64,000 bases of DNA from Octopus vulgaris. Taxonomy: Eukaryota. The DNA is taken from positions 123,442,001-123,506,000 of the forward strand of contig OX597815.1 in assembly GCA_951406725.2 (NCBI GenBank), in the 5' to 3' direction. Shown piece by piece: positions 2,561 through 41,134 of the stretch. A model generated the notes under the pieces. That model was not told the origin of the DNA and did no database searches. It saw nothing but the letters and a program-made list of their open reading frames with translations. Each line of letters opens with the position of its first letter. Position 1 is the stretch's first letter. The position numbers were made by a program, and so were the translations under genes.

Positions 2561-3230
2561 CAAATGATAATCTTCCCTTAGAAAGAGCACAGGTAAGTGC
2601 TCCAAGTTGACTGTATAATTATTTACAGCTAGGTAGATAAACATCTCAATTTGTACTCACAACCTATAGACCAAGTGACTGATAATCTAAGCTGTCTGAA
2701 TTTAACTCATAATTAATACCTTTATTAGTTGACACTAGAAACAAGATCATAGAGAGAAGCAAGAGCTTTGTGTTTCTAGTAATTCAAACAGGTCAATATT
2801 GAGAGAGCAGTCTTAACTCAAAAACACACACACATCAAAATACAAATACATCAGTCATAAGAAAAAATAAAATAACAAAAACCAGCAAGCAACATTTTAC
2901 AATGCAACAGTAGCAAGAACATACAGAAAATAAAGAATAGTGAGATTATAATGATGAAATAGAACTCGAGAACCCAGGTATTTGTAAATTTTCATGGATT
3001 TTAATGAAAAGAAAAATATTTAAATATGATATTTCATAGATAGTCACAGCTAGGTAGCTTTTTTTCAGAAAGGTTGTTGGGATTTAGAAACCTGATAGTT
3101 AAATCATCATCATCATATTTATGAAAAAGTATCAAGAGTAATTAACTTAAGGAAATATGGAATAAGCTATGAATGATATGTTGGTATGGAAATGTAATAT
3201 GAATGCATAACATCCTTAATCAATATACAT

Positions 3231-4250
3231 TCATCATCATTTAATGTCTGTTGTCCATGCTGACATTGGTTGGATAGTTTGACCAGGGCTGGCAAGCTGC
3301 ACCAGACTCCAGACTGATTTGGCATGTTTTCTGTGGCTGGATGCCCTTCCTAACACCAACCACTCTGAGACTGTAATGGGTGTTTTTACGCACCACCAGC
3401 ATAGGTGCCATTTACATGACATTGATATCTGCAATTTTGCTTGACTTGATGGGTCTTCTCAAGCACAGCATAATGCCAAAGGTCTCAATCATTGCCTCTG
3501 TGAGGCCCCAATGCTCGAAAGGAACTCAGCAACTTTGCCTACATGAAGCCCAATGCTCGAAAAGAACTCAGCCACTTTGCCTCCATGAGGCCTAATGCTC
3601 AAAAGGAACTCAGCCACTTAGCCTTCGTGCGGCCCAATGCTCAAAAGGAACTCAGCCACTTTGCCTCCATGAAATCCAATGCTCGAACAGTGCTCTTTAC
3701 GTGCCACTGACATGGGTGCCAGTTATCTGACACCAACATTAGCCATGACTTTGATTTCACTTGACTTGATGGGTCTTCTCAAGCATAACGCCAAAGGTCA
3801 TGGTCACTAGTCATTGCCTCTGTGAAGCCCAAAGTTTGAAGACCATGCTTCACCACTTTGTCCCATATCTTCATGGGTCTGTCTCTACCACAGGTTCCCT
3901 CCACAGAGATCAGCACTCCTTTACACGGCTGTCCTCGTCCATATGCATCACATGACCATACCAGTGCAGTTGTATCTCTTGCACATCACATTGATGCCTC
4001 TTATACACAAGTTTTCTCTCAAGATGCTTAAACTCTGTCGAACAAGCACACTGACATTGTACATCCAGCGAAGCATACAAACTTCATTTCTTTCAAGCCT
4101 ACTCATATCCTCGGCTGTCACAGCCCATGTTTCACTGACATGTAGCATGGTTGATCGCACACAGGCATCATACAATCTGCCTTTCACTTTGAGAGAGAGG
4201 CCCTTTGTTGCCAGCAGAGGTGGGATCTCTCTGAATTTTTCCCAGCACTT
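3231..4250 (-). mobile_element. RTE-clade LINE, 5'-truncated (ORF C-terminus, 3'UTR, (GAT)n tail)
   Basis: ORF 3948-4259 gives WEKFREIPPLLATKGLSLKVKGRLYDACVRSTMLHVSETW, typical of the RTE post-RT region. The 3'UTR matches 55591-56100. Confidence 0.88.
3494..3688. repeat. 42-bp minisatellite, about 4.6 copies, inside the RTE 3'UTR
   Basis: Unit gcctccatgaggcccaatgctcgaaaggaactcagccacttt starting at 3494, 3537, 3579, 3621 and 3663. Confidence 0.9.
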
Positions 4251-5879
4251 TAAAAACAAGTGAAGATTAAATTTGAAATAAGCATTATCTTCAACAAATT
4301 ATCAGCCTCTATGGAGGGAGAGAGGAGTCACTCAGCTTGCTAAAAATAACAGCCAAATTCCCTTGAAACTGAACGATGGATATTCAAAAAGACAGTTACC
4401 TTAGGTCAGCCATGACAGCAAATCTATGATCAAAAGTGCACAAACTGCAAGTAACCCATCTTTTATTCAAGTTATATCAAGAAATACACTGTCCTTTTCT
4501 AAAGGCCATAGGATCTAATTTGAAGCATATATTGCTGGTATTTCAAGCAAGCCAAGCAACCACATAAAGACTTTCATTAATGTTTCTATATCAGGGCCTA
4601 ATTTTTAAAATTCAAACATTTTTGGAGCTCCTTGTGATTCAGGTATAGGTTCTCTCGTTGTTCACACATATATGCATTATCATCACATTATTACACTGAG
4701 CATTGGTCCAAAATAAAAATTATAACAAATATAAATCTACAATATTTCTCCAATAAAACATATATGCATTTCTCCCCAACAGGTTTCCTCCTACTCCTCC
4801 TCTTGCCTGTTCAGTACTTCTATTCATTGTCCCATGTTACTCATGTAATGACGGAAAATATTAGATCAGCTCATATTCAATCTCCTACATCATCTGTGTA
4901 TCTCTCCTGCACATAACGATGTCTGAATTGCCCAAACCTGCCGTTATCTTATATGCTCCTCAGCACTTAATATCTTTCTCTTTCAACAGCTAACTCATCG
5001 ACTTGCATCACACTGTCTTACCACTGACTATTTCTACAACTATCCATCACTTGCTGTGTCTGTTCAGTCATTTTATCTACCTGCATCTCTCACACGATTC
5101 TCCACCCCAGCAAACATAGTTACTGTTTGTGTCCCCCTGCAATTACCTTCTCTCTCAGTATATCCTGCTAATATTTTCTAAAGCATTATCTCTCCCATTT
5201 CTTCCTCTCCTCATACTCTCTCAGTCAAGTTTATCTTCTGCAATAGTCCTCTTCTATTCATTCTGTTCAGGTTGATGAGTGAGTGAACACACAGGGTTGA
5301 GAGAAGTCTTTAGTTTTGTGTCTTGTCAATAAACTCTAGTACTGGTGACATGAACAAATACACATAGCACTTTCTGAAAAGTGGCTTGTGTATGGAGGGC
5401 CTCCAGCCACAGAAACTATGAAAAATAGTACAAGTCAAACATAAGTAACTCAAGAATTGATTCAAACTGTGATGACCAGTTAAACCTATGCCAGCATGGA
5501 AAGTAGATGTAAAGAAAATAAATATGCAAATGGTACTGAAAATATATTTTATTAAAGGCTTTTTATGAAGTATCTTTAAAATGAAATACAAAAAATTAAA
5601 ATAGAAGTACGAAAACAAATGTCAAACTTAAAAATTGAAATGAACATAGACAAGTTATTTATTCTGACTATATTAGATTTTTAGATGTATGCACCAATAG
5701 CGAAGTATCTGATACTTAACATAGACCCCACAAAATGTAGAGAGCAACGCAAATATTTGACGTTCATTTTGTTTATCATAGAGAATTACAATCAATCCTC
5801 AAAGCCTTATTCTCTTATCTAATCTACAGTTATCAACATTATTTACATTTGACGGATATTTGTCATCATCTTGTTGTTG

Positions 5880-5925
5880 TTAAAACGTTCTGGCTGATAT
5901 ACCCTCCAGCCTTCATCAGGTATCT
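5880..5925 (-). ncRNA. Hammerhead ribozyme-like motif in the left arm (CUGAUGA intact, GAAA altered)
   Basis: Minus strand AGATAC-CTGATGA-A-GGCTG-GAGGGTATAT-CAGCC-AGAAC-GTT. Its defect differs from that of the right-arm copy, so the two-arm consensus is canonical. Confidence 0.58.
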
Positions 5926-6222
5926 TGGGGAAATTTCAAACCTGGGTTCTCATTCTTAAAGTATTTTTCAATGTTATTATTATTATTATTATTATTATTA
6001 TCATTATTATTATTCAGGTCACTGCCTGGAATCGAACTCGGAATCTTGGATTTAGTAACCTGTGCTCTTAACCACTATGCCATATGACTGTGATTAAAAA
6101 GCATGGGCTACTAACTCCAAGATTCCGAGTTCGATTCCAGGCAGTGACCTGTATGGTAATAATAATAATGATGATATCAAAAAATACCTTAGGAATGAGA
6201 ACCCAGGTTCAAAATTTCCCCA

Positions 6223-6270
6223 AGACACCTAATGAAGGCTGGAAGGTATATCAGCTGAAACGTTGTGTTT
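6223..6270 (+). ncRNA. Minimal type I hammerhead ribozyme-like motif (core mutated to CUAAUGA)
   Basis: AGACAC-CTAATGA-A-GGCTG[loop]CAGCT-GAAAC-GTT-GTGTTT: stem I AGACAC/GTGTTT, stem II GGCTG/CAGCT, palindromic ACGT stem III. Confidence 0.62.
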
Positions 6271-6419
6271 ACAACAAACAAGATGAGGACAAATATCTGT
6301 CAAATGTAAATAATGTACATAATTCCTCATCTCTTAAATATAGAACTGTATAGTTATCAATCCCAAAAAAATTTGTATCAGAAACTATACTAACCCTAAC
6401 ACAAATGTTAAATTGAATG

Positions 6420-14722: not shown

Positions 14723-16013
14723 CGAGGGACGTTCAATAAGTAATGCCCCTGACCCACTTGCAGTTGATTGATCTTGCTGAAATTTTGCATGTGCAATTAT
14801 TCATATCTCTATAGATTACATGGTGAATTACAGCTCTGAACTAATTGTGGTTTCTGATTTCCAGGTGTTTGAACTTAGTTAAGTGTGAAATGGAGCCTGT
14901 TGAGTGTCGAGCAGTGATCCGTTTTTTGTATTTGAAAGGACGCACACCATGGGAGACTTTTGATGAAATGAAAGTAACTTATGGTGATGATGCCCCATCA
15001 TATGACCTTGTAAAATGCTGGCATCATGAATTCAAACATGGTCGGAACTCTGTGGAAAAGGCTCCCAGATCTGGTCGCCCCCTTCTGCCATTGATGAGGC
15101 ATCTGTCTGTCAAGTTGAGGCTGCCATTTTGGAAGATTGGCACGTAACTATTCGCCAAATAGCCCATTAGGTCAAGATTAGTACCAGGTCTGTGGAAACT
15201 ATCATTCATGACCCTTTGCATATGCAAAGGTTGTCTTCCAGATGGATTCCCAGGTTGTTCACACCTTTTCAGAAGCAAGAACGCGTCGAGTGCTCGAGGA
15301 TGAATTTGGAGATGTGCCAAGAAGATGAGTCAAAGTTTTTCAAAAGACTGATTGCACAGGATGAAATCTGGGTCCATCACTATGATCCAGAGACCAAAGC
15401 CCAGTCAATGCAAGGGAAGCACCGTGACTCACCTCCTCCAAAGAAGGCAAGGGTGCAGCCCTCCACTGGCAAGGACATACTCACAGTCTTCTGGGACCAG
15501 GATGGAGTAGTGATGACAGATTTCCTGGCAAAGTGTACCACAATTACAGGAGCCTATTATGCTTCATTTTTGAGGAAATTAAGAGAAGCTATCAAAATCA
15601 AGAGGCTGGGCAAGATCAGCAAATGCATCCTCCTCCTGCAGGACAACGCTCCGGTCCACAACTCGCGTGTCGCCAGATCAGAAACACAGGCGTGCGGCTA
15701 TGAACTCCTCCCCCATCCCCCTACTCTCTTGACCTTGCACCCTCTGATTTTCACCTCTTCCCAGCCATGAAGTTGTTTTTGAAAGGAAAACGTTTCCCAG
15801 GTGATGCAGCCTTGATTTCTGAAGTCACGTCGTGGTTGGAGGACCAAGCTGGGGTCTTCTACAAAAACGGTCTTCAGAGCTGCATCAAACGATGGGAGAA
15901 ATGCGTAACTCTGGGTGCTTCCTATGCACGAAAAGACTAATAACTGTGCCAAGTTTCGTTGCTCTACTGCTATGGGAAGTGGGTCAGGGGCATTACTTAT
16001 TGAACGCCCCTCG
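14723..16013 (+). mobile_element. Full-length mariner (DD34D) DNA transposon, 1291 bp, 37-bp TIRs, TA TSD
   Basis: TIR CGAGGG(A/G)CGTTCAATAAGTAATGCCCCTGACCCACTT at both ends (1 mismatch), TA at 14721-22 and 16014-15. Confidence 0.97.
14890..15940 (+). pseudogene. Mariner transposase pseudogene (two frameshifts and one stop)
   Basis: MEPVECRAVIRF...RSGRP, WIPRLFT, DEIW, QDNAPVH and HPPYSLDLAPSDF with D-34-D spacing after frameshift repair. Frameshifts near 15080 and 15720, in-frame TAG at 15168-15170. Confidence 0.93.
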
Positions 16014-17225: not shown

Positions 17226-19352
17226 ATACTTTGATACTTTGATAGGTTTCGGCCATTATTGGCCCAGGCCATGTCTAACTTAATAGCACCACCTGGTGAA
17301 GTCTTTCAAGTCAGAATTTGGGCACTATGGCCCACTCAAGTAGAGAGTTATTGTTTACAGAGACATATCCGGGTGTAGGGGGTTTATCCGGGATTTCTTG
17401 AAGGAATCTGTCCAAAGACTTCTTGAACCCTATAGGGTCAGTTTCTGTTTTAATGTGTTTTGGTGTAATGTTAAAGAGAGCGGGGCCAATTGAGGTGAAA
17501 TAATTGTGCCGTATTGTTGTTATGAGATGAGAGTGCGATTTTTGTTTTGGGCGGATGGCACAGGGCCCAAGCCTTGGATGTACCTTAAAGGTGATGCCAA
17601 CATCATTTGGGCAATGCTGATGGAATATTTTCCACATCATGCAGATGATGTAGCGCTCACGACGACGTTGGAGAGAATAGAGTTTTAGCTTTTCTAGTCG
17701 ACCCCAATAGTCGAGGCCTGTCATGCCATCTATCTTTTTTGTGATTGCCGTTTGAGGTGCTTCAACTTTTATGATACCTTGTATTGTGTGGGGAGACCAC
17801 AGTGGACAACAGTATTCAAGGTGGGGTCGGGCAAAAGTGGAGAAGAGAAGGATAATGGTGTGGATATCTCTCGACTGGAAAGTTCTGAGAATCCAGGAAC
17901 ACATTCTGCGGGCCATGTCAACTTTGGTGTTTATATGAGTGGCCCAGCTTACGTTGTTGTCCACAATTACTCCCAAGTCTCTGATGTTGTTGGACGCCGC
18001 GAGAGTTTCACCTGAAGGAAGGGAGTATGGGAGTTTCAGGGCATCCTCTTTTCCAAAGTGGATTAGCTCAAATTTATCCTCGTTCAGCAGCATATTGTTT
18101 TTTTCTGCCCATTGGATAACAGCCAGTAGATCTGACTGAAGGCATGTCCGGTCATTCGCCTCATTTATGACCTTCTGTAGCTTGGAGTCATCTGCAAAGA
18201 TTTTTATGTTGCTGTGCTTGATGATGTCATTAATGTCAATGTAAATGATGAAAAGAAGTGGGCCCAGCACAGTGCCTTGCGGAACGCCACTACTGACTTT
18301 GGCTGGGCTTGATTTTACCCCTTCAACTACAACATGTTGAGATCTGTCTGTCAGGAAACACTTAATCCATTTCAGTAACTTTCTAGAGACACCAATGTTG
18401 GATAGTTTTTTCAATAGGATCTTGTGATCGACCCTGTCGAAGGCCTTACTGAAATCAAGGTAGATGACATCGGTGTTGGAGCCTTCTCCCAAAGCTCTCA
18501 AAATGTCCTCAAAGTGATGCAGGAGCTGCGTTAGGCAGTCCCTTCCATTACGGAACCCATGTTGGTTGGAGATCAGCAGTCTGTTGCTTTCCAGAAATTG
18601 GGTTATTCAAGATCTCACCACCCTCTCAAATACCTTGATGATATGAGAGGTGAGTGAGATCGGACGGTAATTCACTGCAAGGGACTTGTTTCCCTTTTTG
18701 AAAACTGGGACAACAGACTGGGACAGAAGGTTTTTTGGAATATAGCCAGCATCCAGTGAGTTTCTCCACAGATTAGCAAGGGGAGATGCAAGTTGGTGTC
18801 GACGCACCTTCAGGACACAAGCAGGGAACCTATCGGGGCCTACTGCTGAATTGTGTTTTATTTCGTTTATCGCCGCTAAGACATCAGGGGCACTAAACGT
18901 TATGTCCGATATAGTGTGTTGGGGGTTGACATCACTGATACAGCCCAGATCGGCCATATCAGGATTGCTGAAAACAGAGCAGTATTGTTTCTGCAGTATC
19001 TCGGCCATGGATTTGGCATTATCTTGGAGAGTGCTAGTTTCGTCAATTAGAGGGCCTACAGTGGAGACAGTGACCCTGCGTTTCCTCGCAAATGAAAAGA
19101 ACACTTTGGGGCTGAGTTTGATTTTTTCAATGGCCCACTTCTCCTCAGCTGATCTTTGGTTATTAATGAGGGTCTTCATGCATTGTTGGAGGTTATATTT
19201 TTTGGATTCAAGCAGTGCGATAGCCGTCGAATGTGTGTGTTGCTGTTGGCAGTACTTTAGTTTGTTAATTTTTTTGTTTGTTCTTTTTATTTTTCTGATA
19301 ATGGTTTTTCTGTTTTGGGGGATTCTGCACTTTTTGTTCACAGGTCTTGGTG
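17226..19352 (-). mobile_element. CR1-group (Jockey superfamily) LINE, 5'-truncated, near-intact RT domain with a single premature stop
   Basis: [42 protein letters not shown] and LEYCCPLWSP motifs. ORFs 18607-20232 and 17311-18501 are in the same frame, split by TGA at 18607-18609. Short 3'UTR ends in an 8-bp repeat (TATCAAAG)2. Confidence 0.93.
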
Positions 19353-19712
19353 TATATGTATATACACACACATATATACATATACACACATATATACATA
19401 TACACACATATATACATATACACACATATATACATATACACACATATATACATATACACATATATATACATATACACAATATACATATACACATATATAT
19501 ACATATACATATACACATATATACATATACACATATATACATATACACATATATACATATACATATATACACATACATATATACACATATATATATATAT
19601 ATATACACATATATACACATATACATATACATATATACACATATATACATATACACATATACACATATATACATATACATATATACACATACACATATAT
19701 ACATATACACAC

Positions 19713-19743
<31 letters not shown>

Positions 19744-20611
19744 TACATATACACATATATACATATACATATATACACATATATACACATATATATATAT
19801 ATACACATATACATACATATATATATATACACATATGTATACATATATACATATACACATATGTATACATATATACATATACACATATATATACATATAT
19901 ACATATACACATATATATACATATATACATATACACACATATATATATACACATATATACATATATATATATATATACATATATATATACACATATATAC
20001 ACATATATATACACATATACATATAATCACATATACATATATACACATATACATATATACACATACATATATACACATACATATATACACATACATATAT
20101 ACATACATACGCATATACATACATACACATATACATACATACGCATATACATACATACGCATATACATATACACATATATATATATACACATATATATAC
20201 ACACATATATATACACACATATATATACACACATATACATATAATCACATATACATATATACACATACATATATACACATACATATATACACATATACAT
20301 ACATACATACGCATATACATACATACGCATATACATACACATACATATATACATACATACGCATATACATACATACGCATATACATACATACGCATATAC
20401 ATACATACACATACATACATACACATATACATACATACATATACATATATATACATACACAGATATATACATACACATATATATATACATACATACATAT
20501 ACATACATACATATATACATACATATACATACATATATATATACATATACATACATATATACATACATATACATACATATATACATACATATACATACAT
20601 ACATACATACA

Positions 20612-20643
<32 letters not shown>

Positions 20644-20658
20644 CATACATACATATAT

Positions 20659-20783
20659 CCTTAAATCCTTAAAAATATTTTAGCCCGAAGGCCGTGGCCA
20701 TGCTGGGGCACCACCGCTGAATGAGCTACACTAGTTTGTGAATCCACCTCTGATACGTGGCACTTGATCAACAAGGGAGTTGA
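20659..20783 (-). mobile_element. Short 3'-end fragment of a SINE/LINE inside the microsatellite
   Basis: Minus strand ...GGTGGTGCCCCAGCATGGCCACGGCCTTCGGGCTAAAA followed by a (TTTAAGGA)-type tail. Motif shared with the SINE tails at 31951 and 41725. Confidence 0.7.
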
Positions 20784-21284
20784 TACATACATATACATAC
20801 ATACATATATACATACATATATACATACATATATACATACATATATATATACATATATATATACATACATATACATACATATATATATACATACATATAC
20901 ATACATATATATATACATATACATACATACATACATATATATATACATATACATACATACATACATATATATATACATATACATACATACATACATATAT
21001 ATATACATATACATACATACATACATATATATATACATATATATACATATACATACATACATATACATATACATACATACATATACATATACATACATAC
21101 ATATACATACATACATATACATATACATACATACATATACATATACATACATACATATACATATACATACATACATATACATATACATACATACATATAC
21201 ATACATATACATACATACATATACATATACATACATACATATATATATACATATACATACATACATATATATACATATACATAC

Positions 21285-21317
<33 letters not shown>

Positions 21318-21424
21318 CATATACATACATATATATATATACATATACATACATATATATATATATACATATACATACATATATATATATATACATATAC
21401 ATACATATATATATATATTACAAA

Positions 21425-21455
<31 letters not shown>

Positions 21456-21738
21456 TATACATACATATATATATATATACATATACATACATATATATAT
21501 ACATACATATACATACATATATATATACATACATATACATACATATACATATACATACATATACATACATATATATATACATACATATACATACATATAT
21601 ATATACATACATATACATACATATATATATACATACATATACATACATATACATATACATACATATACATATATATATATATACATACATATATATATAT
21701 ACATATACATACATATACATATATATACATATACATAC

Positions 21739-21783
<45 letters not shown>

Positions 21784-22552
21784 CATACATATATATATAT
21801 ACATACATATACATACATACATATATATATATATACATATACATACATATATATATATATACATATACATACATATATATATATATACATATACATACAT
21901 ATATATATATACATATACATACATATATATATATATACATATACATACATATATATATATATACATATACATACATATATATATATACATATACATACAT
22001 ATATATATACATATACATACTAAATATACATACACATATACATATACATATACATACATATATATATATACATATACATATATATATATATATACATATA
22101 CATACATATATATATATATACATATACATACATATATATATATACATATACATACATATATATATATACATATATACATATACATACATATATATATATA
22201 TATACATATACATACATATATATATATACATATACATACATATATATATATACATATACATACATATATATATATACATATACATACATATATATATATA
22301 CATATACACATATATATATATACATATACATACATATATATATATACATACATACATATAAAACACACATACACATACATATATATATATATACATATAC
22401 ATACATATATATATATATACATATACATACATATATATATATACATATACATACATATATATATATACATATACATACATATATATATATATATATACAT
22501 ACATATATATATATATACATATACATACATATATATATATACATATACATAC

Positions 22553-22602
<50 letters not shown>

Positions 22603-22847
22603 ATATATATACATACATATATATATATACATATACATACATATATATATATATACATATACATACATATATATACATATACATATATATATATACATAT
22701 ACATACATATATATATATACATATACATACATATATATATACATACATATATATATATATACATATACATACATATATATATATACATATATACATACAT
22801 ATATATATATACATATATATACATATACATATATATACATATATATA

Positions 22848-22883
<36 letters not shown>

Positions 22884-22906
22884 CATACATATATATATAC
22901 ATACAT

Positions 22907-22951
<45 letters not shown>

Positions 22952-22952
22952 C

Positions 22953-22983
<31 letters not shown>

Positions 22984-23112
22984 CATACATATACATATAC
23001 ATACATATAAATACATACATATACATACATATATATACATATACATATACATACATATATATATATATACATATACATACATATATATATATACATATAC
23101 ATACATATATAT

Positions 23113-23167
<55 letters not shown>

Positions 23168-23229
23168 CATACATATATATATATACATACATATATATAT
23201 ATACATACATATATATATATACATACATA

Positions 23230-23263
<34 letters not shown>

Positions 23264-23780
23264 CATACATATATATATACATATACATACATATATATAC
23301 ATACATATACATACATATATATACATACATATACATACATATATATATATATACATATACATACATATATATATATACATATACATACATATATATATAT
23401 ATACATACATATACATACATATATATATATATACATACATATATATATATACATACATATACATACATACATATATACATACATATATATATATATATAC
23501 ATATACATACATATATATATATACATACATATATACATATATATACATACATATACATACATATATATATATACATATACATACATATATATATATATAC
23601 ATACATATATATATACATACATATACATACATATATATATATACATACATATACATACATATATATATATACATACATATATATATATACATATACATAC
23701 ATATATATATACATATACATACATATATATATATATACATACATATATATATATATATATATACATACATATATACATAC

Positions 23781-23812
<32 letters not shown>

Positions 23813-23828
23813 ATATATATATACATAC

Positions 23829-23859
<31 letters not shown>

Positions 23860-24717
23860 CATATACATACATATATATATACATACATATATATATATAT
23901 ATATACATACATATACATACATATATATACATATATATACATACATATATATATATATACATACACATATATATATACATACATATATATATATATATAT
24001 ACATACATATATATATATATACATATACATACATATATATACATATACATACATATATATACATATATATATATACATATACATACATATATATATATAC
24101 ATATACATACAAATATATACATATATATATATATACATATACATACATATATATACATATACATACACATACATATATATATATACATACATATATATAC
24201 ATATACATACATATATATATATACATAAACATACATATATATATATATACATAAACATACATATATATATATATACATAAACATACATATATATATATAT
24301 ACATAAACATACATATATATACATATACATACATATATATACATATACATACATATATATATATATACATATACATACATATATATATATATACATATAC
24401 ATACATATATATATACATACATATATATATATATACATACATATATACATACATACATATATATATACATACATACATATATATATATACACACATACAT
24501 ACATATATACATACATACATATACATACATATATATATATACATATATATATATATACATATACATACATATATATATACATACACATATACATACATAT
24601 ATATATACATACATATACATATATATACATATACATACATATATATATACATACATATACATACATATATACACATACATATACATACATATATATATAT
24701 ATACATATACATACATA

Positions 24718-24749
<32 letters not shown>

Positions 24750-25618
24750 CATATACATACATATATATATATATATATACATATACATACATATATATAT
24801 ATATACATATACATACAAATATATACATATATATATATATATATACATACATATATATACATATACATACACATACATATATACATATACATACATATAT
24901 ATATATATATATACATACATATATATATATACATATACATACATATATATATATATACATATACATACATATATATATATACATATACATACATATATAT
25001 ACATATACATACATATATATACATATACATACATATATATATATATACATATACATACATATATATATATACATACATATATATATATATATACATACAT
25101 ATATATATACATATACATACATATATATATATATACATACATATATATACATATACATACATATATATATACATACATACACACACACACACATACATAC
25201 ATATATATATACATACATATATATATATACATACATATATATATACATACATATACATACATATATATATATACATATACATACATATATATATATACAT
25301 ATACATACATATATATATATATACATACATATATATATATACATATACATATATATATATATACATATACATACATATATATATATACATATACATACAT
25401 ATATATATATACATATACATACATATATATATATACATACATATATATATATACATATACATACATATATATATATATACATATACATACATATATATAT
25501 ATATACATATACATACATATATATACATATACATATATACATATACATACATATACATATATATATATATATATATATACATACATATATATATATATAC
25601 ATACATATATATATATAT

Positions 25619-25663
<45 letters not shown>

Positions 25664-25698
25664 CATATATATATATACATATACATACATATATATAC

Positions 25699-25743
<45 letters not shown>

Positions 25744-25744
25744 C

Positions 25745-25775
<31 letters not shown>

Positions 25776-25858
25776 CATATACATACATATATATATATAT
25801 ACATATACATACATATATATATATATACATATACATATATATATATACATACATATAC

Positions 25859-25891
<33 letters not shown>

Positions 25892-25983
25892 CATACATAT
25901 ATATATATATACATATACATACATATATATATATATACATATACATATACATATATATATACATATATATATATATATACATA

Positions 25984-26083
25984 NNNNNNNNNNNNNNNNN
26001 NNNNNNNNNNNNNNNNNNNNNNNNNNNNNNNNNNNNNNNNNNNNNNNNNNNNNNNNNNNNNNNNNNNNNNNNNNNNNNNNNNN
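25984..26083. other. Assembly gap (100 N)
   Basis: Exactly 100 Ns, a typical placeholder of unknown true size. Confidence 0.99.
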
Positions 26084-26539
26084 TATACATACATATACAT
26101 ATATATATATACACATATACATATATATACACATATATATATATATATACATATATATACACACATATATATATATATACATATATATACACATACATAT
26201 ATATATATACATATATATACACATATATATATATATATATACATATATATACACATATATATATATATATACATATATATACACACATATATATATATAT
26301 ATATACATATATACACATATATATATATATATACATATATATACACATATATATATATATATACATATATATACACACATATATATATATATACATATAT
26401 ATACACACATATATATATATATACATATATATACACATATATATATATATACACATATATATACACATATATATATACACATATATATATACACATATAT
26501 ATATACACATATATATATATATACACATATATATACACA

Positions 26540-26589
<50 letters not shown>

Positions 26590-26596
26590 TATACAC

Positions 26597-26631
<35 letters not shown>

Positions 26632-27020
26632 CATATATATACATATATATACACATATACATACATATATATACACATATACATACATATATATACACAT
26701 ATACATACATATATATATATATACACATATACATACATATATATATATATACACATATACATACATATATATATATATACACATATACATACATATATAT
26801 ATATATACACATATACACATATACATATATATACACATATACATATATATATATACACATATACACATATACATACACATATATATACACATATACATAT
26901 ATATATATACACATATACATATATATATATATATATATACATATATATACACATATATATATATATATATACACATATACATATATATATATATACACAT
27001 ATACATATATATATATATAT

Positions 27021-27905
27021 AATTGCTATTTTCAACTCTTTACTGACCATTCATAATTTTATCAAATTTCTCTATCTGTCAATCTTATCTAATCTTATTC
27101 AATTCATATCATTTCTCCTCGTATTAATCAACATTCGTATCTTCGCGCCATCTTGAAGCCTTTTCTCTCTAATTCACATGTACTATCTCTCTCTCTCTCT
27201 CTCTCTCTCATCTACAAGCTGTGAATTTCCGATTGCGAACAAGATAGGTGTTTTGAATTGCTATTTTCAACTCTTTACTGACCATTCATAATTTTATCAA
27301 ATTTCTCTGTCTATCTTTGACCATTCATAATTTTATCAAATTTCTCTATCTGTCTATCTTATCTAATCTTATTCATTTCATATCATTTCTCCTCGTATTA
27401 ATCAACATTCGTATCTTCGCGGTGCACCCGCCCTACCCACCCCCACCACCAATACTGGATATCTACATTTTTGCTCCATCTATACCGGATGTCGCTTCTC
27501 CCACCACCATTATAGGTGTCTACTCTTCGAACCCCCCTCTTCAATACGCTATTTCACCATGCATTACCCCTCTCTCGATATCCTACGTTCTACTTGCCTA
27601 GAACCTGTCATTTCTCTGAACCACCCCTCCCCACTGGTGCTTCCCTATATTTCTGCACCCCCCCCACATAACAAGCACCATCCGAACGTGGCCGATGCCA
27701 GACCTCTCTGGCACCTGTGCAGGTGGCACGTAAAAAACACCCACTACACTCGCGGAGTGGTTGGCGTTAGGAAGGGCATCCAGCTGTAGAAACATTGCCA
27801 GACTAGACTGGAGCCTGGGGCAGTCCCGAGCTCCCCAGACCCCGGTCGAAACCGTCCAACCCGTGCTAGCGCGGAAAACGGACGTTAAACGATGATGATG
27901 ATGAT
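27021..27905 (+). mobile_element. Non-autonomous RTE-related element (tandemly repeated 5' region + RTE 3' tail ending (GAT)n)
   Basis: 27021-27127 is repeated at 27256-27421 with an inner duplication. 27673-27905 matches the RTE 3'UTR (gttggcgttaggaagggcatccagctgtagaaac...gacgttaaacgatgatgat). Many CpGs are retained. Confidence 0.75.
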
Positions 27906-28603
27906 ATACATATACATATACATACATATATATATATACATATATATATATACATATATATACATATATATATACATATATATACATATATATATACATA
28001 TATATATACATATATATACACATATACATATATATATATACACATATACATATATATATATACACATATATACACATATACATATATACATATATATACA
28101 CATATACATATATATATATACACATATATACACATATACATATATATATATACACATATATGCACATATACATATATATAAATACACATATATGCACATA
28201 TACATATATATAAATACACATATATGCACATATACATATATATATATATACACATATATGCACATATACATATATATACATATACACATATATACACATA
28301 TACATATATATACATATACACATATATACACATATACATATATATATATATACACATATATACACATATACATATATACACATATACACATATATACACA
28401 TATACATATATACACATATACCTATATATATATACACATATATATAAACATATATCTATATATATATACATATATATACACATATACATATATATATATA
28501 CATATATATACACATATACATATATATATATACATATATATACACATATACCTATATATATATACATATATATACACATATACATATATATATACACATA
28601 TAC

Positions 28604-28654
<51 letters not shown>

Positions 28655-30235
28655 CATATATATACACATATATATACACATATATATACACATATATACA
28701 CATATACATATATATATATATACATATATATACACATATACATATATATATATACATATATATACACATATACATATATATATATACATATACATACACA
28801 TATACATATATATATATACATATATATACACATATACATATATATATATACATATATATATACACATATACATATATATATATACATATATATACACATA
28901 TACATATATATATATATACATATATATACACATATACATATATATATATATACATATATATACACATATACATATATATATACATATATATACACATATA
29001 CACATATATGCACATATACATATATATATATATACATATATATACACATATACATATATATATATACATATATATACACATATACATATATATATATACA
29101 TATATATACACATATACATATATATATATACATATATATACACATATACATATATATATATACATATATATACACATATACATATATATATACATATATA
29201 TACACATATACATATATATATATACATATATATACACATATACATATATATATATACATATATATACACATATACATATATACATATATATACACATATA
29301 CATATATATATATATACATATATATACACATATACATATATATATATATATACATATATATACACATATACATATATATATATATACATATATATACACA
29401 TATACATATATATATATACATATATATACACATATACATATATATATATATACATATATATACACATATACATATATATATATATATACATATATATACA
29501 CATATACATATATATATATATACATATATATACACATATACATATATATATATACATATATATACACATATACATATATATATATATACATATATATACA
29601 CATATACATATATATATATATATATACATATATATACACATATACATATATACATATATATACACATATACATATATATATATACATATATATACACATA
29701 TACATATATACATATATATACACATATACATATATACATATATATACACATATACATATATATACATATATACACATATATACATATATATACATATATA
29801 TACACATATACATATATATACATATATATACATATATATACACATATACATATATATATATACATATATATACACATATACATATATATATATACATATA
29901 TATACACATATACATATATATATATATATACACATATACATATATATATATATATACACATATACATATATATATATACATATATATACACATATACATA
30001 TATATATATATACATATATATACACATATACATATATATATATATACATATATATACACATATACATACACATATACATACATATATATACACATATACA
30101 TACACATATACATATATATATATACATATATATACACATATACATATATATATATACATATATATACACATATACATATATATATATATACATATATATA
30201 CACATATACATATATATATATACATATATATACAC

Positions 30236-30267
<32 letters not shown>

Positions 30268-30425
30268 ACATATATATATATATACATATATATACACATA
30301 TACATATATATACATACATATATATACACATATACATATATATATATATATACATATATATACACATATACATATATATACATACATATATATACACATA
30401 TACATATATATACATATATATACAC

Positions 30426-30458
<33 letters not shown>

Positions 30459-30607
30459 TATATATATATATATATACATATATATACACATATACATATA
30501 TATATACACATATACATATATATATAAACATATACATATATATATAAACATATACATATATATATATACACACACATATACATATATATATATACACACA
30601 CATATAC

Positions 30608-30640
<33 letters not shown>

Positions 30641-30919
30641 TATATATATATATACACATATACATATATATATACATATATATACACATATACATATATA
30701 TACACATATACATATATATATATATATACACACATATACATATATATATATATACATATATATACATATATATATATATATACACACATATACATATATA
30801 TATATATATACACACATATACATATATATATATATACACATACATATATATATATACACATATACATATATATATACATATATACACACATATACATATA
30901 TATATACATATACATATAT

Positions 30920-30950
<31 letters not shown>

Positions 30951-31092
30951 CATATATATACACATATACATATATATACACATATATATATACATACACA
31001 TATACATATACATATATATACACATATACATATATATACACATATACATACATATATATACACATATACATACATATATATATACATATACA

Positions 31093-31137
<45 letters not shown>

Positions 31138-31779
31138 ACATATATATATATACACATATACATATATATATATACACACATATACATACATACACATATA
31201 CATACACATATACATACATATATATACATATACATACATATACATACATATACATACATACATATATATACATATACATACATATATATACATATACATA
31301 CATATATATACATATATATACATATACATACATATACATACACATACATACATATACATACACATACATACATATACATACACATACATACATATACATA
31401 CACATACATACATATATATACACATATATATACATACATATATATACATATACACATATATATATATACACACATATATATATATACACATATATATATA
31501 TATATACACACATATATATATATACACATATATACATATATATACACACATATATATATATACACACATATACATATATATATACATATACACATATATA
31601 CATATACACATATATACATATACACATATATATATACACACATATATATATACACACATATATATATATACACATATATATATATACACACATATATATA
31701 TACACACATATATATATATACACACACATATATATATACACACATATATATATATATATACACATATATATATATATAT

Positions 31780-32021
31780 GGAGGCGCAATGGCCCAGTGG
31801 TTAGGGCAGCGGACTTGCGGTCGGAGGATCGCGGTTTCGATTCCCAGACCGGGCGTTGTGTGTGTTTATTGAGCGAAAACACCTAAAAGCTTCATGAGGC
31901 TCCGGCAGGGGATGGTGGTGATCCCTGCTGTACTCTTTCACCACTCTAAAGGCGGTGCTCCAGCATGGCCACAGTCAAATGACTGAAACAAGTACAAAAA
32001 AAAAAAAAAAAAAAAAAAAAA
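31780..32021 (+). mobile_element. tRNA-derived SINE with intact A/B boxes, LINE-like 3' motif and A26 tail
   Basis: A box TGGCCCAGTGG, B box GGTTTCGATTCCC, tail GGCGGTGCTCCAGCATGGCCACAGTCAAATGACTGAAAC, poly(A) 31996-32021. Confidence 0.88.
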
Positions 32022-32838
32022 TACACACATATATATATATACACACATATATATACACATATATATATACACACATATATATACACACATATATATACAC
32101 ACATATATATACACACATATACATACACACATATACATACACACATATACACATATACATATACACACATATACATATACACACATATACATATACACAC
32201 ATATACATATACATATACACATACACATATACACATATACATATACACACATATACATATACACACATACATATATACATATACATACATACACATATAC
32301 ATACATACACATATACATACATATACATACATACGCATATACATACATACACATATACATACATACGCATATACATACATACGCATATACATACATACGC
32401 ATATACATACATACGCATATACATACATACGCATACATATACATACATATATACATACATACATATATATATACATACATACATATATATATACATACAT
32501 ACATATATATATACATACATACAAATATATATACATACATACATATATATATACATACATACAAATATATATACATACATACAAATATATATACATACAT
32601 ACAAATATATATACATACATACAAATATATATACATACATACATATATATATACATACATATATATATATATACATACATACATATACATACATATATAT
32701 ATACATACATACATACATATACATACATACATATATACATACATACATACATATACATACATATATATATACCTATACATATATATATACATATACATAC
32801 ATATATATATACATATACGTACATATATATATACATAC

Positions 32839-32871
<33 letters not shown>

Positions 32872-33929
32872 CATACATATATATATACATACATATATAT
32901 ATACATATACATACATATATATATACATATACATACATATATATATACATATACGTACATATATATATACATACATATATATATACATACATATATATAT
33001 ACATATACATGCATATATATATACATATACATGCATATATATATACATACATATATATATACATACATATATATATACATGCATATATATATACATATAC
33101 ATGCATATATATATACATATACATGCATATATATATACATATACATACATATATATATATACATATACATATATATATACATATACATACATATACATAC
33201 ATATATATATACATATACATACACATATATATATTCATACATATATATATACATATACATATATATACATACATATATATATACATATACATATATATAC
33301 ATACATATATATATACATATACATACATATACATACATATATATACATATACATACATATATATATACATACATATATATACATATACATACATATACAT
33401 ATACATACATATACATATACATACATATATATATATATACATACATACATATACATACACATACATATATATATATATACATACATACATATACATACAT
33501 ATATATACATACATATACATATATACACATACATATATACCACACATATATACACACATATATACACACATATATATACACACATATATATATACACACA
33601 CATATATATACACACACATATATATACACACACATATATATACACACACATATATATATATACACATATATATATACACATATATATACACACACACATA
33701 TACACACACACACACATATATATATATACACACATATATACACACATATATATACACATATATACACATATATACACACACATATATACATATACGCATA
33801 TATACATATATGCATATATACATATACGCATATATACACATATACGCATATATACATCATCATTTATACACATACATACATACACACACACACACACATG
33901 CATATTTTGTATATTTTGCACTCAACAGG

Positions 33930-34165: not shown

Positions 34166-35606
34166 CATATTTTTATATATGTATATATACATATCCTTTC
34201 CACCATCACAGGCAAGGCTAGATGCCATTGTTAGTGTGTAAATGCAGACACACACAAACAACACTTCTAAAAATGCTGCTTCTATTTCCATACTCATACA
34301 ATCAAAAAAGTTATATTGTAGCTGAATGTCTTCTACAGTTATTACACCTGGTCCTATTTTACAGTTTACTACATTGAACTAAAGAAAACTTTGCTGGGTC
34401 CAGATTTAACTCAATGACTAGGGATTAATTATTATGCTATTATCTCAACTATTGAATAATATAACCATAACTACCCTATAATGATTTCTAACATCTATAA
34501 TTAATAATTTTTTAACATACCTACTTTATAATAACTACCACAATGAAGCAAATCTAGTACCAAAATAATTTTCTCAGGGGTGTAAATTAACTTCACTCAT
34601 AATATTCTGCCTTCAAATGTTTTGTTCTTATACTCCTCATTATGACCTTAATGTCTTTAATGTAAAACTTCTCTGCTATCACTATCAAATTTTAATATTC
34701 AGTTTTAGATATTCCAAAAAATGACAAGTTTTGTTCTTAGTCCTCTAATTTGGTATCTGTAAAAAAAAAAAAATATTAAAAAAAAAAAGCAAAAAAGAAA
34801 ATAACCTCGAGTAATTTTTTTTTTTTACTGTGAAGACTTCAGGTAACTAGAATAATCAACACCATTGTGTGAAAGGAGTTTCTTTTTAAACATTGTTGTC
34901 ATTGGTTGGTAAAAAGATCTTGAAATACAGATTAATTACCGAGTACAATTTGAGACATACACTATCTCATCTTCTGTAGTTGCTCTTTCAAGCATTTAGA
35001 ATAAAATAAGCCTGTTTTAAATAAAGAGTGCTTGAATAAAATGGTTACTAGGAAACTAGCCAAGTCACAATCAAAAATAAACTATACTGATTGCAGTAAA
35101 GCAAGTTAGTCATACTAGTAGCTAAACAAGCAACTAGCAGCTAAACAAACAAAGCTGATCTCTAAAATAAATGAATTGAAAAGGAGGAAGACAGCCTCTT
35201 AAGTAGATGTTTTTTATCTACAGAGAGCTCTTTAGGGTTTAGTTTAGTAATTATTATTACCATTGCCAATGCTTCTTAGGCTAGTAAAGTAACTGAATTC
35301 ATTCAATACTGGACCAAATGACATGCAGTAATTAATTACATTTCTAATATTCCAAGTTCAAATCCTGCTGAGATCTGTTACGACTTTCATACTTAAAGAG
35401 TCCAATTAAATGAATACCAGTAATGTTATTTAACCTTAGATCAGCCCTGATTGAGCAAGTGTATTCCTGTCATGATATTTTTCCATACATCAGTAAGCAA
35501 CCTTGTTTTCCAACCTAACACACATCTAAAACCTCTTTTTCAGCGCAGATTATAATTACTTTATTATTTCATTTCATTATCTATCTATGTAAACAGTTTT
35601 GTCTTC

Positions 35607-35987
35607 CATGCTGGTGGTATGTAAAAAGCACCATTCGAGTGTGATTATTGCCAGTGCCACTTGACTGGTACTCATGCTGGTGACATGTAAAAAGCACCAT
35701 TCTAGTGTGGTCATTGCCAGTGCCGCACGACTGGCTCCCATGCCGGTGGCACATAAGAAGCTCCATTCAAGCATAGTCAATGCCAATACCACCTGACTGG
35801 CCCTCATGCCAGTGGTACATAAAAAGCATTCACTACACTCTCGGAGTGGTTGGTGTTAGGAAGGGCATCCAGCTATAGAAACTTTACCAGATCAGATTGG
35901 AGCAGCCTTCTGGCTAGTCAGCCATCAGAGTCAAACCGTCCAATCCATGCCAGCATGGAAAGCAGATGTTAAACAATGATGATGATA
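35607..35987 (+). mobile_element. RTE 3' tail element containing a 66-bp tandem repeat (about 3.4 copies)
   Basis: Units start at 35607, 35673, 35739 and 35805, followed by the RTE terminal block and gatgatgat. Confidence 0.82.
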
Positions 35988-36719
35988 AGTAACTACATTG
36001 TTCAATGAATCACATTTAAGAATGATTTGAGGAGACTTGGCTGCTGTTTCTAGTAGTGTTGAATAATTATAAAGAGGTATCCTTGCATCTAAGTTATGAG
36101 AACAGTTGAAGCATTGCTATTTACTATATTTGTTGTTTTGATAAGTTTCTTTGAGTCCAGTTACATTTAATACTCTAGTGAAGTACATCTATTGAAACTG
36201 AAATGAAACTGGCTGTAATGATTCCCAGAAGATTAAATATTTATTCCTTCAACATACTTGTAGTATATGACTTAATTTTCAAGTGACTCAATCTAAATAG
36301 ACAACATTTTCCATTGCATTTGTCATACTATTTTCATATATTGTTTCAATTCTTTCACTCTGAGGTCTTAAGTAAATATATTAGATAATAATTTAAACAT
36401 GGCTAAGTAAATGCTAAAAGACTGAATTATCATTCTGAAACATTAAAAAGAATGTTAAAGATTTTATCTCATTGAAATTTCATTTGAACAACTAAAATCT
36501 GTTAGTCATCATATTTCTAATGAATAACATCACATTTTTAACATCATCCATATTTTCATAAGCAACTCCATATAATATATATCTCCTTGTTTTTTATTTC
36601 CTCTTCTCCTTCCACCTATCCAAACAGCTGGGTCCCTCCCTACAAAGCCACTTCCTCTTGACATCTATCTCATTCTTACCATCATCAACTCATACCCATA
36701 TTTACTGTCATTATAACCT

Positions 36720-36912
36720 AAGACAGTGAGCTGGCAGAATTATTAGCATGTAGGACAAAATGCTTAGTGGCATTGCTTACACTTTTTTACATTCTGAGCT
36801 CAAATCTCACTTAAGTCAACTGACTTTCATCCTTTTGTTGATAAAATAAACACTGGGGTTGATGTAATTAACTAAACCTCTCCTCTCAAAATTTTGACCT
36901 TGTGCTAAAATT
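36720..36912 (+). mobile_element. tRNA-derived SINE (same family as the 39.4-40.6 kb cluster, opposite strand)
   Basis: gtgagctggcagaattattagcatg...ttctgagctcaaat...ctttcatcctttt is the reverse complement of the cluster units. Confidence 0.72.
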
Positions 36913-39384
36913 AGAATTACTACCATTGTCTACTACCCATTCATTTTATTCATCTCTCACTTTTCCTCACATGTCATAACCTTTAACCATACTCTCATCT
37001 GTCATTCAATCCTTCCATCACACTCCTATCTATTATATTATTTTGCTGCTGTAAATAATGAAATCAAAACTTACTACAATTTCCAATCATTTCTGTGTTG
37101 CCAGTCATTACTCCCTCTCCAAGCTACTCCCAAACGACATCTATATCATTCCTACCACTTGTATTTACCATTTATTATATTCATCTTCTATACACAACTG
37201 ACAACTTCCACCCCATGTTTAAATCCAACTCCCACTCTCCCCTCATACTTTTGTAACCTTACCCGCTCATGCTAATTTCCTAGTCTCTATACTCTATTCA
37301 CTTTTTTGGACACATTACCTTTAGGGCATGATCTGGCATCTCAACACCACCATATTTACCTCTCTGACCTATATAAAATGCACAAGAGCCATCAATCTTC
37401 CCAGTAACAAACCTGTCCTTACTCTTCCCATCATACATTAACCACTCAGCACCTCACACAAAACAACCACTATCTCCTTATTCTCCCGTCCTAGTGAGGG
37501 TGTCACAAAAAAAGTACCTAGCACACTCTGCAAAGTGCTTGACATTAGAAAGGCCATCTGATTGTAGAAACCATGCTAAAACTGAGACATGGGAACAAAA
37601 TGTGGTTCTCCAACCCATTGGGTCCTGTCTAGCCATCCAACTAATGCCAGTACGAAAAGCAGATGTAAAAATGATGATCTCTAAAATGCTTAAATATCAT
37701 ATGTTAATATAAAGACATTGAAAATAGTATATTCTAGCCAGATCAATGCAGCAAATGAAGAACAAAAGAAATCCTCCTTTTTGATGTCAAGTTGTATAGT
37801 GTGAGACTTTTAAAATGCAAGAATGATGTAAACTGCTTGAAGGAATATACATAAAAGAAATTTTTCCTAGAATAGCTAACAGAAAAAAAAAATAAAAGCT
37901 ATGTTAGAAATTATTAGTAATGAGAAATAAAGCATGTAAAATGAACTGTAGCTGTGGCCTTATTTAGGATGACTAAAATTAACTGAAGAAACAATGAGAA
38001 AATGAAAGTCAATAATTAAAGCTTGATATAACACAAGAGAAAAATATGGTTGCAGGCAAAGTTAAAAACCTAGAGAACTGTAAACCAATTTCAAATCTTT
38101 TAATAGGTAAGCAAATTGGAGAAATAAAAATTGATTTGTTATTTATTATGAAACATACCAAGCTACAAACATGACACTGCTTTGTGGAAACAAAGAATAA
38201 AACAGTGCAGAGAGAAGGAGGGAAGGAGAAAGCAGTATGAGAAGGAGAGGGATAACAAAATATATACATTATTCAGAAGCAGATAATCTTCCAGGTTGCT
38301 ATTAAGGGGAGGTATTTGCAGAAAATGATCTTGAAAATAATCTTGAAAAGTAAGGAGATTCTAGAGGGTTGCATTCCCAGAATTGTATAGTGTTTAATGT
38401 AAGCTCAAAGAGGTAAGAGAGTGAGTGGTAGAAGAAGAGACAGATTAGGCAGGCAAGATTGAAGAATGGTAAGCATCTACCTAATTAAGAAAGCAAGAAG
38501 CCCTAGTAGAAGAAATTGTGTGTCAAAGTGCATCTTTGCCACTTAAATGGTGTTTTTTGCATATAATGTTTGAGTATGTAACAATAACACTCAAAATATG
38601 GTTCTTTCTGAAACTTTACAGCAGAACAGTAATTAATCAGGGCTGAAGTATTTCCTGACCCTAAGGAATCGTAGCCTTCATGGCATCATTGTAGCAATAC
38701 TACAATATATGTGTAGGGATTCACCATGAGAGATTTGTTTTGAAATTATTTTCTTCACCATTACTTAGGTTTTATTTTATTTATGACAAGAGAGAGTGAG
38801 GTACAAAACTGTTTCCTCGATCCTCCCTGATGTATCACAGATATATTCACCTGAGCACTGTATACAATAAGTTCATTATTATTATATCTGTGGGCCTTTG
38901 TTCGAAAGTAACAACTATATTGTGAAAGAAATCTCCAGTTAAATTTTCTAGTAAAAAAAAAAAAAAGACAGAGAAAAGGGAAGAAAGAAAAGAAAGGATG
39001 AAAGTAAAAAGATAAAGAAAATGATTGGAAAGATTTTAAAACTGATGTTTAACCATGCAAATAATTTCAAGCCCAATGTCAGTTCTAATATCATTTAACT
39101 TAGATCGTATAAGATTTTAAGTTCTATAATTACAGTATCATAATTTTTTTTTTTTGAGTTGTTGATCATGCAAAAAAAGATTATAATTTTTGTCAAAGAT
39201 TATAAACTAAACACTCAGGAAAACAATTATCTTATATTTCAAATGCTACATCATTAATATTAAATCCTTTGCATGCTTTCTCTCATTCTCTCTCCCTTGC
39301 AGAAAGCTCATTAATCCTCAAAGTAAATCTCTTCGCATTACTTTCAGTAATAGCATTTTCTCATACACATTATACCCACATTTA

Positions 39385-40565: not shown

Positions 40566-41134
40566 ACATTATTGACTACCCATCTGATAAGGGTACACCA
40601 GGCTCATGCATCACAACTATATGTGCATGACAAAGTGATCTCATATCAAGATAAACAGTGCATGACCATGCAGGTGGAACCCAAGTTAGAATTTTCAAGT
40701 TGAGCAACCCATCCTGCACAAAAGGTCCCTGAATAAGGGCTGTTTAAGGATGCTGAACGAAACGTCCATGCTTTCAGAGTTGAATTAGTCAAACCCCGAA
40801 GAATTCCTCTCAACACATGATTACAATGCTCCCCCACTACTTCTGCTTATGATCAGAGATGCACATATTGTCAGCCACTAAAGACCAGCTCAACTGGTTA
40901 AGATCAAGCAACTGGCAAGCAAATCTGCAGTACTGAACAGAATATTTGCTGTAGCCCATCTTATACAAAGACAAAACATGTACATGATAGCACTTCCAAT
41001 CAGTTAAGATCAAAATCCATGAGAAGCTAGAAGTTCAAGTTGGTGTTATGACTAGGGTGCCATACATTTGGTTTTGCACAAAGTATTGTTCTAGAGAATG
41101 TTTCAGAAAACATAAAAAATTTATAACTTTGTTA

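Follow-up and report, generated by a model that had tools for sequence, protein, structure and literature searches.

Introduction

Penelope-like elements (PLEs) leave an unusual footprint when they insert. Rotifer Penelope elements form head-to-head inverted repeats, one of them with a 31-bp tail, between duplications of 8-10 bp, and foreign sequence has been mobilised by Penelope in trans (Arkhipova et al. 2013, PMC3846280). The same insertion layout is drawn in Craig et al. 2021 (10.1101/2021.04.23.441226), where Chlamydomonas MRC1 appears as a non-autonomous PLE derivative. The optional tail of 30-40 bp is shared by and unique to PLEs and was traced to two internal start sites of reverse transcription after nicks in the two strands of AT-rich DNA; the anole enzyme has a preference for ATT, and its element can insert without hammerhead cleavage, which is assisted by protein (Frangieh et al. 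2024, PMC11167929). Short interspersed elements (SINEs), on the other hand, are defined in SINEBase by their need for a partner among the long interspersed elements (LINEs) and by a simple-repeat tail (PMC3531059). Here, we analysed a fold-back element at positions 5836-6350 of a 64,000-nt stretch of the Octopus vulgaris genome (GCA_951406725.2, contig OX597815.1, positions 123,442,001 to 123,506,000, forward strand), referred to as the window. We propose that it is an insertion product of a SINE-like element transcribed by RNA polymerase III (Pol III), which was likely moved by a Penelope-type reverse transcriptase/endonuclease.

Two further groups of described elements come close. Sm-alpha and Sj-alpha of Schistosoma are non-coding and present in many copies, with a tRNA-derived Pol III head and a type I hammerhead (PMC6765202, PMC2770079). 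Their hammerhead is canonical, self-cleaving and located in tandem repeats; the accessible parts of these two papers describe no tail or inverted-copy signature and name no mobilising partner. Animal retrozymes without long terminal repeats (non-LTR retrozymes) are likewise short and non-coding, carry type I hammerheads and have been proposed to borrow PLE enzymes, but they are defined by a tandem arrangement and by processing into circles (Cervera and de la Pena 2020; Li, Clavereau and Pollet 2026; PMC7229834; 10.64898/2026.07.22.740005). The accessible text of these studies mentions no tRNA head and names no cephalopod among the taxa. A tRNA head joined to a hammerhead is thus already known, as are non-autonomous PLE derivatives, so that the combination noticed in an initial sequence-only reading of the locus is not in itself new.

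The octopus element shares with PLE insertions the head-to-head inverted copy, the variable 5' truncation, a tail of 28-34 nt at one end, a duplication of 9-12 bp, AT-rich flanks and a hammerhead upstream of the tail. Unlike PLEs, it has a tRNA-type Pol III head instead of a Pol II repeat, and no open reading frame (ORF) for a reverse transcriptase or GIY-YIG endonuclease was found in the unit, so it is not an autonomous PLE; unlike PLE insertions, it shows no direct tandem repeat at this locus. With tRNA-derived SINEs it has in common a length below 700 bp, a head with A and B boxes, a body and a dispersed high-copy family. Contrary to the SINE definition, no simple-repeat tail was seen, nor a LINE partner among the two LINE remnants of the window. 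As the tail expected of a SINE is missing and a PLE ORF was not found, the element belongs under neither class: it works like a non-autonomous PLE and starts like a SINE.

Results and discussion

The fold-back is the product of an insertion, not the repeated unit

The arm of the fold-back is present in 20 of the 24 listed sequencing runs, which come from 14 studies with five organism labels. Four runs, one of raw RNA reads and three sets of contigs, were aligned to this copy at 80% likeness, yielding 10,022 RNA reads and 46,211, 41,631 and 20,318 contigs. The results below refer to the rows listed for these alignments (40 of 106 differences, 15 of 475 joints and 24 of 1821 loose ends). Depth was restricted to about 5835-6351, with flanks at single-copy depth. 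Summed depth gives no copy number; in each DNA run, 3,179-5,540 contigs overlap the stretch in part only, which suggests that insertions number at least in the thousands. The repeated unit is a single arm of about 260 nt, composed of A and B boxes, a (TAA)n linker and a 3' part, since inverted copies start at varied points and only 2-5 RNA reads (at 6093-6099) cross the centre of this copy, whose junction 6089/6090 is particular to it. We therefore rejected a fixed palindrome as the unit, the form in which the sequence-only reading had described the element: each insertion creates the palindrome anew, with a centre of its own. Depth of the head is about 0.2-0.3 of that at the 3' end, rising towards the latter as for 5'-truncating reverse transcription. 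The arm is non-coding, without a Pfam match.

Two classes of 3' end, at 6316-6323 and 6350-6351 and 28-34 nt apart, were found in all four aligned runs. At the four places listed per run, short and tailed loose ends numbered 1482 and 1124 in RNA reads and 335 and 595, 442 and 637, and 298 and 401 in the contig sets, which corresponds to short-class shares of 0.57, 0.36, 0.41 and 0.43. Beyond these ends, AT-rich DNA of heterogeneous sequence follows, with an agreement of about 0.4 in contigs. The 3' end is neither poly(A) nor a simple repeat: the family ends in complex sequence and its (TAA)n is internal. In 11 of the 15 listed joints, the 5' end of the head (6086, beyond which matching stops owing to a family difference at 6087) is connected to an inverted copy cut variously from 6180 to 6318; the remaining ones include unions of two truncated arms. 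Where letters between the joined copies are listed, they mostly comprise 1-12 nt and differ from each other. A head-to-tail joint was found neither among the 15 listed nor at this locus.

At the locus itself, an inverted-repeat search of the window confirmed two arms meeting head to head (5830-5884/6268-6322, 5871-5991/6157-6277 and 5983-6069/6097-6183) with identities of 83-85%. Outside the microsatellite, the arms are about 90% identical, 19 of 189 aligned columns being different (Jukes-Cantor distance 0.108); 16 of the differences are transitions and seven lie in CpG context. If the arms were identical at insertion, each would have drifted by about 0.05. No further copy of the arm occurs elsewhere in the window. 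The pair is framed by a direct repeat in AT-rich target DNA that is perfect over nine bases, or matches in 11 of 12 (5825-5836 / 6349-6360) as originally noticed; a match of this kind was given by 38 of 200,000 position pairs drawn at random. The duplication was measured at this one locus. Two 3' ends, variable head-to-head inversions and a 9-12 bp duplication constitute the published integration signature of PLEs, and the idea of a Penelope partner, initially derived from one copy, thereby gains evidence from the whole family.

The initial description of the left arm as truncated holds for its 3' side, where the last 34 nt (the tail) are missing, but its 5' end is complete. It is the right arm that is 5'-truncated, as it starts inside the A box and lacks the first 14 nt of the head. 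The end of the left arm coincides exactly with the equivalent of 6316, the short 3' end class of the family. Coordinates of all features are compiled in Table 1.

Table 1 Features of the fold-back locus (window coordinates)
Feature	Position	Strand	Remarks
Left target-site duplication	5828..5836	+	perfect over 9 bp; one mismatch if extended to 12 bp from 5825
Left arm, 5' end complete, tail missing	5836..6089	-	depth starts 5835-5861; loose ends 6316/6317
Broken hammerhead, left arm	5881..5924	-	CUGAUGA retained; AGAAC in place of GAAAC; stem I shortened by a 3-nt deletion, which creates a T4 run at 5882-5885
(TAA)n linker, left arm	5974..6014	-	
B box, left arm	6029..6037	-	its G is +53 in tRNA numbering
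A box, left arm	6072..6082	-	its T is +8 counted from 6089
Right arm to first family end	6090..6316	+	5' truncation of 14 nt, most of the A box gone
B box, right arm	6129..6137	+	from sequence and arm alignment
Degenerate (TAA/CAA)n linker, right arm	6152..6179	+	
Minimal type I hammerhead, right arm	6224..6269	+	fits the descriptor with majority letters only
Optional 34-nt tail, right arm only	6317..6350	+	loose ends 6350/6351
Right target-site duplication	6352..6360	+	

The tRNA-like head

The A box TGGCATAGTGG of the left arm, followed by a B box 45 nt further on, is the sole such pair in the 64-kb window, and a pair with this spacing appeared in one of 5000 shuffles. The initially noted boxes, an intact A box on the left arm and a B box in both, were thus borne out. 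With 6089 taken as +1, both boxes of the left arm fall on the positions expected from tRNA numbering. The shared 5' end of the family coincides with this +1: common sequence stops sharply there, with only short and variable letters beyond. A cloverleaf was not supported, as ARAGORN reported no genes and Rfam no tRNA match; 'tRNA-like' therefore refers to the two boxes and their spacing only. A cloverleaf obtained by relaxing ARAGORN to a 70% threshold was discarded because 80 of 500 shuffles score too. Folding of the head is unremarkable (z-score -0.39). RNA reads map to the arm equally in both directions, with no start site visible. A T4 run is absent from the right arm and from its majority form.

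In the RNA run (X24), variable places contain 31 T>C changes compared with 10 in the DNA runs, and 18 A>G changes compared with 12-13. Such places lie at 5928-5953 and 6040; at 5934, for example, T>C was found in 224 of 490 reads but in at most 0.2% of contig depth. These excess variants may reflect adenosine-to-inosine editing or a few expressed copies of another organism label.

A minimal hammerhead motif of the PLE type

The motif on the right arm consists of stem I (6224-6228/6265-6269), the core 6229-6235 with G5 mutated to A in this copy, a bulged A at 6236, stem II (6237-6242/6251-6256), GAAA at 6257-6260, a palindromic CG at 6261-6262 and a GUU triplet, with a predicted cut after 6264. 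Neither arm fits the minimal hammerhead descriptor as it stands. Each carries a different core defect, and both revert to intact letters in the family majority, as the sequence-only reading had anticipated: the intact G at 6231 accounts for 2555 of 2872 RNA reads and 92-97% of DNA contig depth, the intact T at 5890 for 354 of 376 RNA reads and 99% of contig depth. For the majority form, 30 of the 40 listed difference rows were used; the 10 omitted represent minority letters or at most five reads. With these letters, the right arm fits the minimal type I descriptor with a helix I of 5 bp and a helix II of 6 bp, which none of 20,000 shuffles did.

PLE minimal hammerheads are characterised by a 5-bp helix I, a bulge at 9/10.1, a G10.1-C11.1 pair and a palindromic 15.2-16.2 without helix III (Cervera and De la Pena 2014; PMC4209133), and the majority-letter motif, judged by its sequence, has all four of these extra features. 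It differs from those hammerheads by the tRNA head in front, the 6-bp helix II and the fact that both genomic copies are broken. A non-coding, tRNA-headed and non-autonomous retroelement with a PLE-type minimal hammerhead, as originally postulated, is thus borne out. Position 11.1 (6256-6257) is a CpG and often decayed. Folding z-scores are +0.41 for the left motif, which is unremarkable, and -1.96 for the right one.

Rfam matched no hammerhead model on the arms, which says little, since the same search at an E-value of 0.01 also missed three of three textbook-looking hammerheads from phages and metagenome-assembled genomes (MAGs). An Rfam match to MIR5380 was dismissed as a generic hairpin scoring far below gathering. 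In a hammerhead pattern scan, five phage/MAG loci (L005-L008, L009; 1501-1534) of type I-like form with a long stem III emerged that Rfam misses. They are unrelated to the element family; one of them, L007, agrees with the element motif in 29 of 35 nt, and the agreement extends to a portion of loop II left free by the pattern.

Processing of the element by its ribozyme, as suggested at first, is not supported. No pile-up of RNA ends was found in the one RNA run, whose library may not show ends, and cleavage is dispensable for insertion in the one PLE studied in vitro (PMC11167929). A dimer of the two motifs is impossible within one transcript because they lie on opposite strands. Downstream of the motif, a perfect 9-bp helix is predicted between body and tail (6281-6289 with 6324-6332), enclosing the first 3' end; the folding z-score is -3.27 for 6275-6340, a stretch picked after inspection, and -1.28 for 6265-6350.

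Proposed mechanism

We suggest that Pol III starts transcription at the tRNA +1, where the shared sequence stops, and reads through the unit, in line with the missing T4 run. The 3' part, comprising the minimal hammerhead, the downstream stem-loops and the tail, would be a cis-element captured from a PLE and bound by the PLE protein. Provided in trans, this protein would nick both strands of AT-rich DNA and begin reverse transcription internally at two sites about 30 nt apart, by analogy with the in vitro work on the anole PLE. The product observed corresponds to this: two copies, one with and one without the tail, face each other head to head within a duplication of 9-12 bp, and one of the two is 5'-truncated to a varying extent. 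A start at internal sites would also explain why the element needs neither poly(A) nor a fixed terminator. The hammerhead is likely a passenger of the PLE cis-element and no obligatory processing site. Such an element may have originated by insertion of a PLE 3' stump into the (TAA)n at the end of a simple tRNA-derived element; the (TAA)n linker would fit this scenario, given the ATT preference of the anole enzyme. The present locus is likely dead: on its left arm, the ribozyme is broken, a T4 run is present and the tail is missing, and most of the A box is gone from its right arm.

Several observations weigh against this proposal. No autonomous PLE with the same 3' part was found in the window, whose two reverse transcriptase remnants look LINE-like by translation, and a protein search with the open frame of the arm gave no candidate. 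An empty site was not seen among the listed joints, and at this locus the truncated arm is the tailed one, unlike in the textbook drawing. RNA reads in both directions, together with loose ends in a few host transcripts, are not evidence of Pol III transcription. The active hammerhead dimer is predicted to lie about 7 kcal/mol above the dimer minimum. The family picture itself is drawn from listed rows and from short contigs and reads aligned on one copy, and reference bias is a concern: 6256 is C in 73% of RNA reads but in 19-20% of contig depth, and for 5891 the corresponding values are 39% and 58-74%.

Alternative explanations

Could the copies simply be 5'-truncated stumps of an autonomous PLE whose terminal repeat contains a tRNA-derived piece, without any independent Pol III SINE? 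All integration features described above are those of PLE stumps, and minimal hammerheads on opposite strands a few hundred bp apart, as seen here, mark truncated PLEs in S. mansoni (100-700 bp; PMC4209133). An open frame spans 6072-6350, and in PLEs the start of the ORF lies within the repeats (PMC11167929, PMC3846280). We nevertheless regard this explanation as unlikely, given the sharp end of the shared sequence at the tRNA +1, past which the letters are few and vary. Pfam gave no match to the open frame, a weak test revealed no candidate among longer proteins, and we treat the frame as a chance occurrence. The retrozyme model, in which tandem units are cut by the hammerhead to monomers or circles and then reverse-transcribed, is supported by animal retrozymes being non-autonomous carriers of type I hammerheads and proposed PLE derivatives (PMC7229834; 10.64898/2026.07.22.740005). 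Moreover, the predicted cut is no more than 1 nt away from two of the 14 truncation points listed (for this selected list, a uniform model gives P of about 0.04). Copies begin at the tRNA +1, however, rather than at the cut, the listed joints contain no head-to-tail case, flanks are heterogeneous and AT-rich, and RNA ends do not pile up. Retrozyme hammerheads are also described as canonical and not minimal (PMC7229834), while the present motif has the palindromic CG only and no helix III. A retrozyme origin thus appears very improbable to us.

An ordinary tRNA SINE with a hammerhead, mobilised by a LINE, would account for the A/B-box head and the 5' truncation, both SINE features; its inverted pair would result from twin priming or two insertions. 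It has a precedent in the tRNA-Gln-derived Sm-alpha (PMC6765202, PMC2770079), and LINE remnants are present in the window. Such a SINE is expected to have a simple-repeat 3' tail, but two fixed 3' ends were found instead, and a single duplication frames both arms, with head-to-head joints recurring across the family. The 3' sequence is common to both arms; twin priming, by contrast, puts another portion of the RNA into inverted orientation. The comparison with LINEs covered the two remnants in the window and gave no match to the element longer than 21 nt (best E-value 0.38). Altogether, a LINE-driven origin is improbable. The least credible alternative is a miniature inverted-repeat transposable element (MITE) of the Tc1/mariner type with TA|CAG...CTG|TA ends and a 23-bp deletion in its left terminal repeat. 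TACAG at 5825 and CTGTA at 6346-6350 would fit, and mariner remnants exist at 14.8-15.8 kb, but only five terminal bases are common to both ends. In addition, 36-57% of the listed 3' ends have no tail, the centre varies between copies, depth is 3'-biased, and the 9-12 bp direct repeat would have to be a 2-in-10,000 coincidence. We consequently rejected a TA-duplicating MITE, which the sequence-only reading had itself named as the outcome that would speak against it.

Novelty and implications

The literature searched revealed no tRNA-headed SINE that bears a PLE footprint; Repbase and Dfam, which were outside this search, may contain the family. Nor did that literature contain a published print of six short motifs of the element. 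Octopus is reportedly home to three families of tRNA-derived retroposons, which Ohshima and Okada are said to have described in 1994; the present family may be one of these. That 1994 paper, the publication of the octopus genome in 2015 and supplements on bioRxiv, to which the literature search did not extend, may likewise already contain the family. The accessible text of the O. vulgaris repeat paper PMC13282606 and its supplement does not contain the word 'ribozyme', and nothing specific on such a SINE appears in the accessible parts of PMC6962438, PMC10886601, PMC8967140, PMC4824008 and PMC9795677. Pattern scans for copies of the family were negative in collections of genome contigs, viral contigs and plasmids, and the four loci returned by a metagenome scan were rejected as coincidences of 21-25 nt.

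Whether the family represents an undescribed class of SINEs, combining a Pol III tRNA head, a Penelope-type reverse transcriptase/GIY-YIG partner, a very high copy number and RNA hairpins throughout the genome, is in our view an evenly balanced question. If a SINE with a Penelope footprint is confirmed, it adds a new class of partner to elements hitherto defined as LINE-dependent (PMC3531059). It would also provide thousands of natural insertions from a template with a known 5' end for studying PLE priming, where the start at two internal sites and the building of the inverted copy are still an open question (Craig et al.; PMC11167929), and would raise the question whether the PLE hammerhead matters beyond protein binding. 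Of the O. vulgaris DNA assigned to unclassified SINEs and to Penelope-like elements (11.6% and 6.83%, PMC13282606), part may be this family. As the insertion itself builds the inverted second copy, long RNA hairpins would be seeded across the genome, and these built-in inverted repeats could be a ready source of double-stranded RNA for editing.

Other features of the window

The 64-kb window is AT-rich, animal-type DNA with LINE and mariner remnants. A near-intact LINE reverse transcriptase frame (17314-18606, minus strand, remnant to about 19300; Pfam RVT_1, E-value 4.5e-22) is CR1/L2-like by reading, and its highest identity among 120 listed matches is 62%, to Argonauta hians, the one cephalopod named there. 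A decayed LINE reverse transcriptase at about 56500-58600 (minus strand) with weak RVT_1 similarity is RTE-like by reading. Fragments of a mariner transposase (Pfam HTH_48 and Transposase_1) occupy 14845-15770 on the plus strand and have relatives with up to 90% identity, no cephalopod being named among the matches. Two dispersed repeat families were noted, one with copies at 925-1318, 2109-2521, 36718-36916 and 39461-40566, the other at 3228-4246, 27665-27906, 35599-35988, 46057-46904, 55590-56472 and 59924-60231; four stretches of these families that were checked contain neither an A/B box nor a hammerhead core. A second, unrelated palindrome of 270 bp (47645-47912, 77%) has no flanking direct repeat of at least 8 bp that could be found. 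A TA/TACA microsatellite tract of 14.5 kb extends from 19355 to 33890 and includes a gap of 100 N at 25984-26083.

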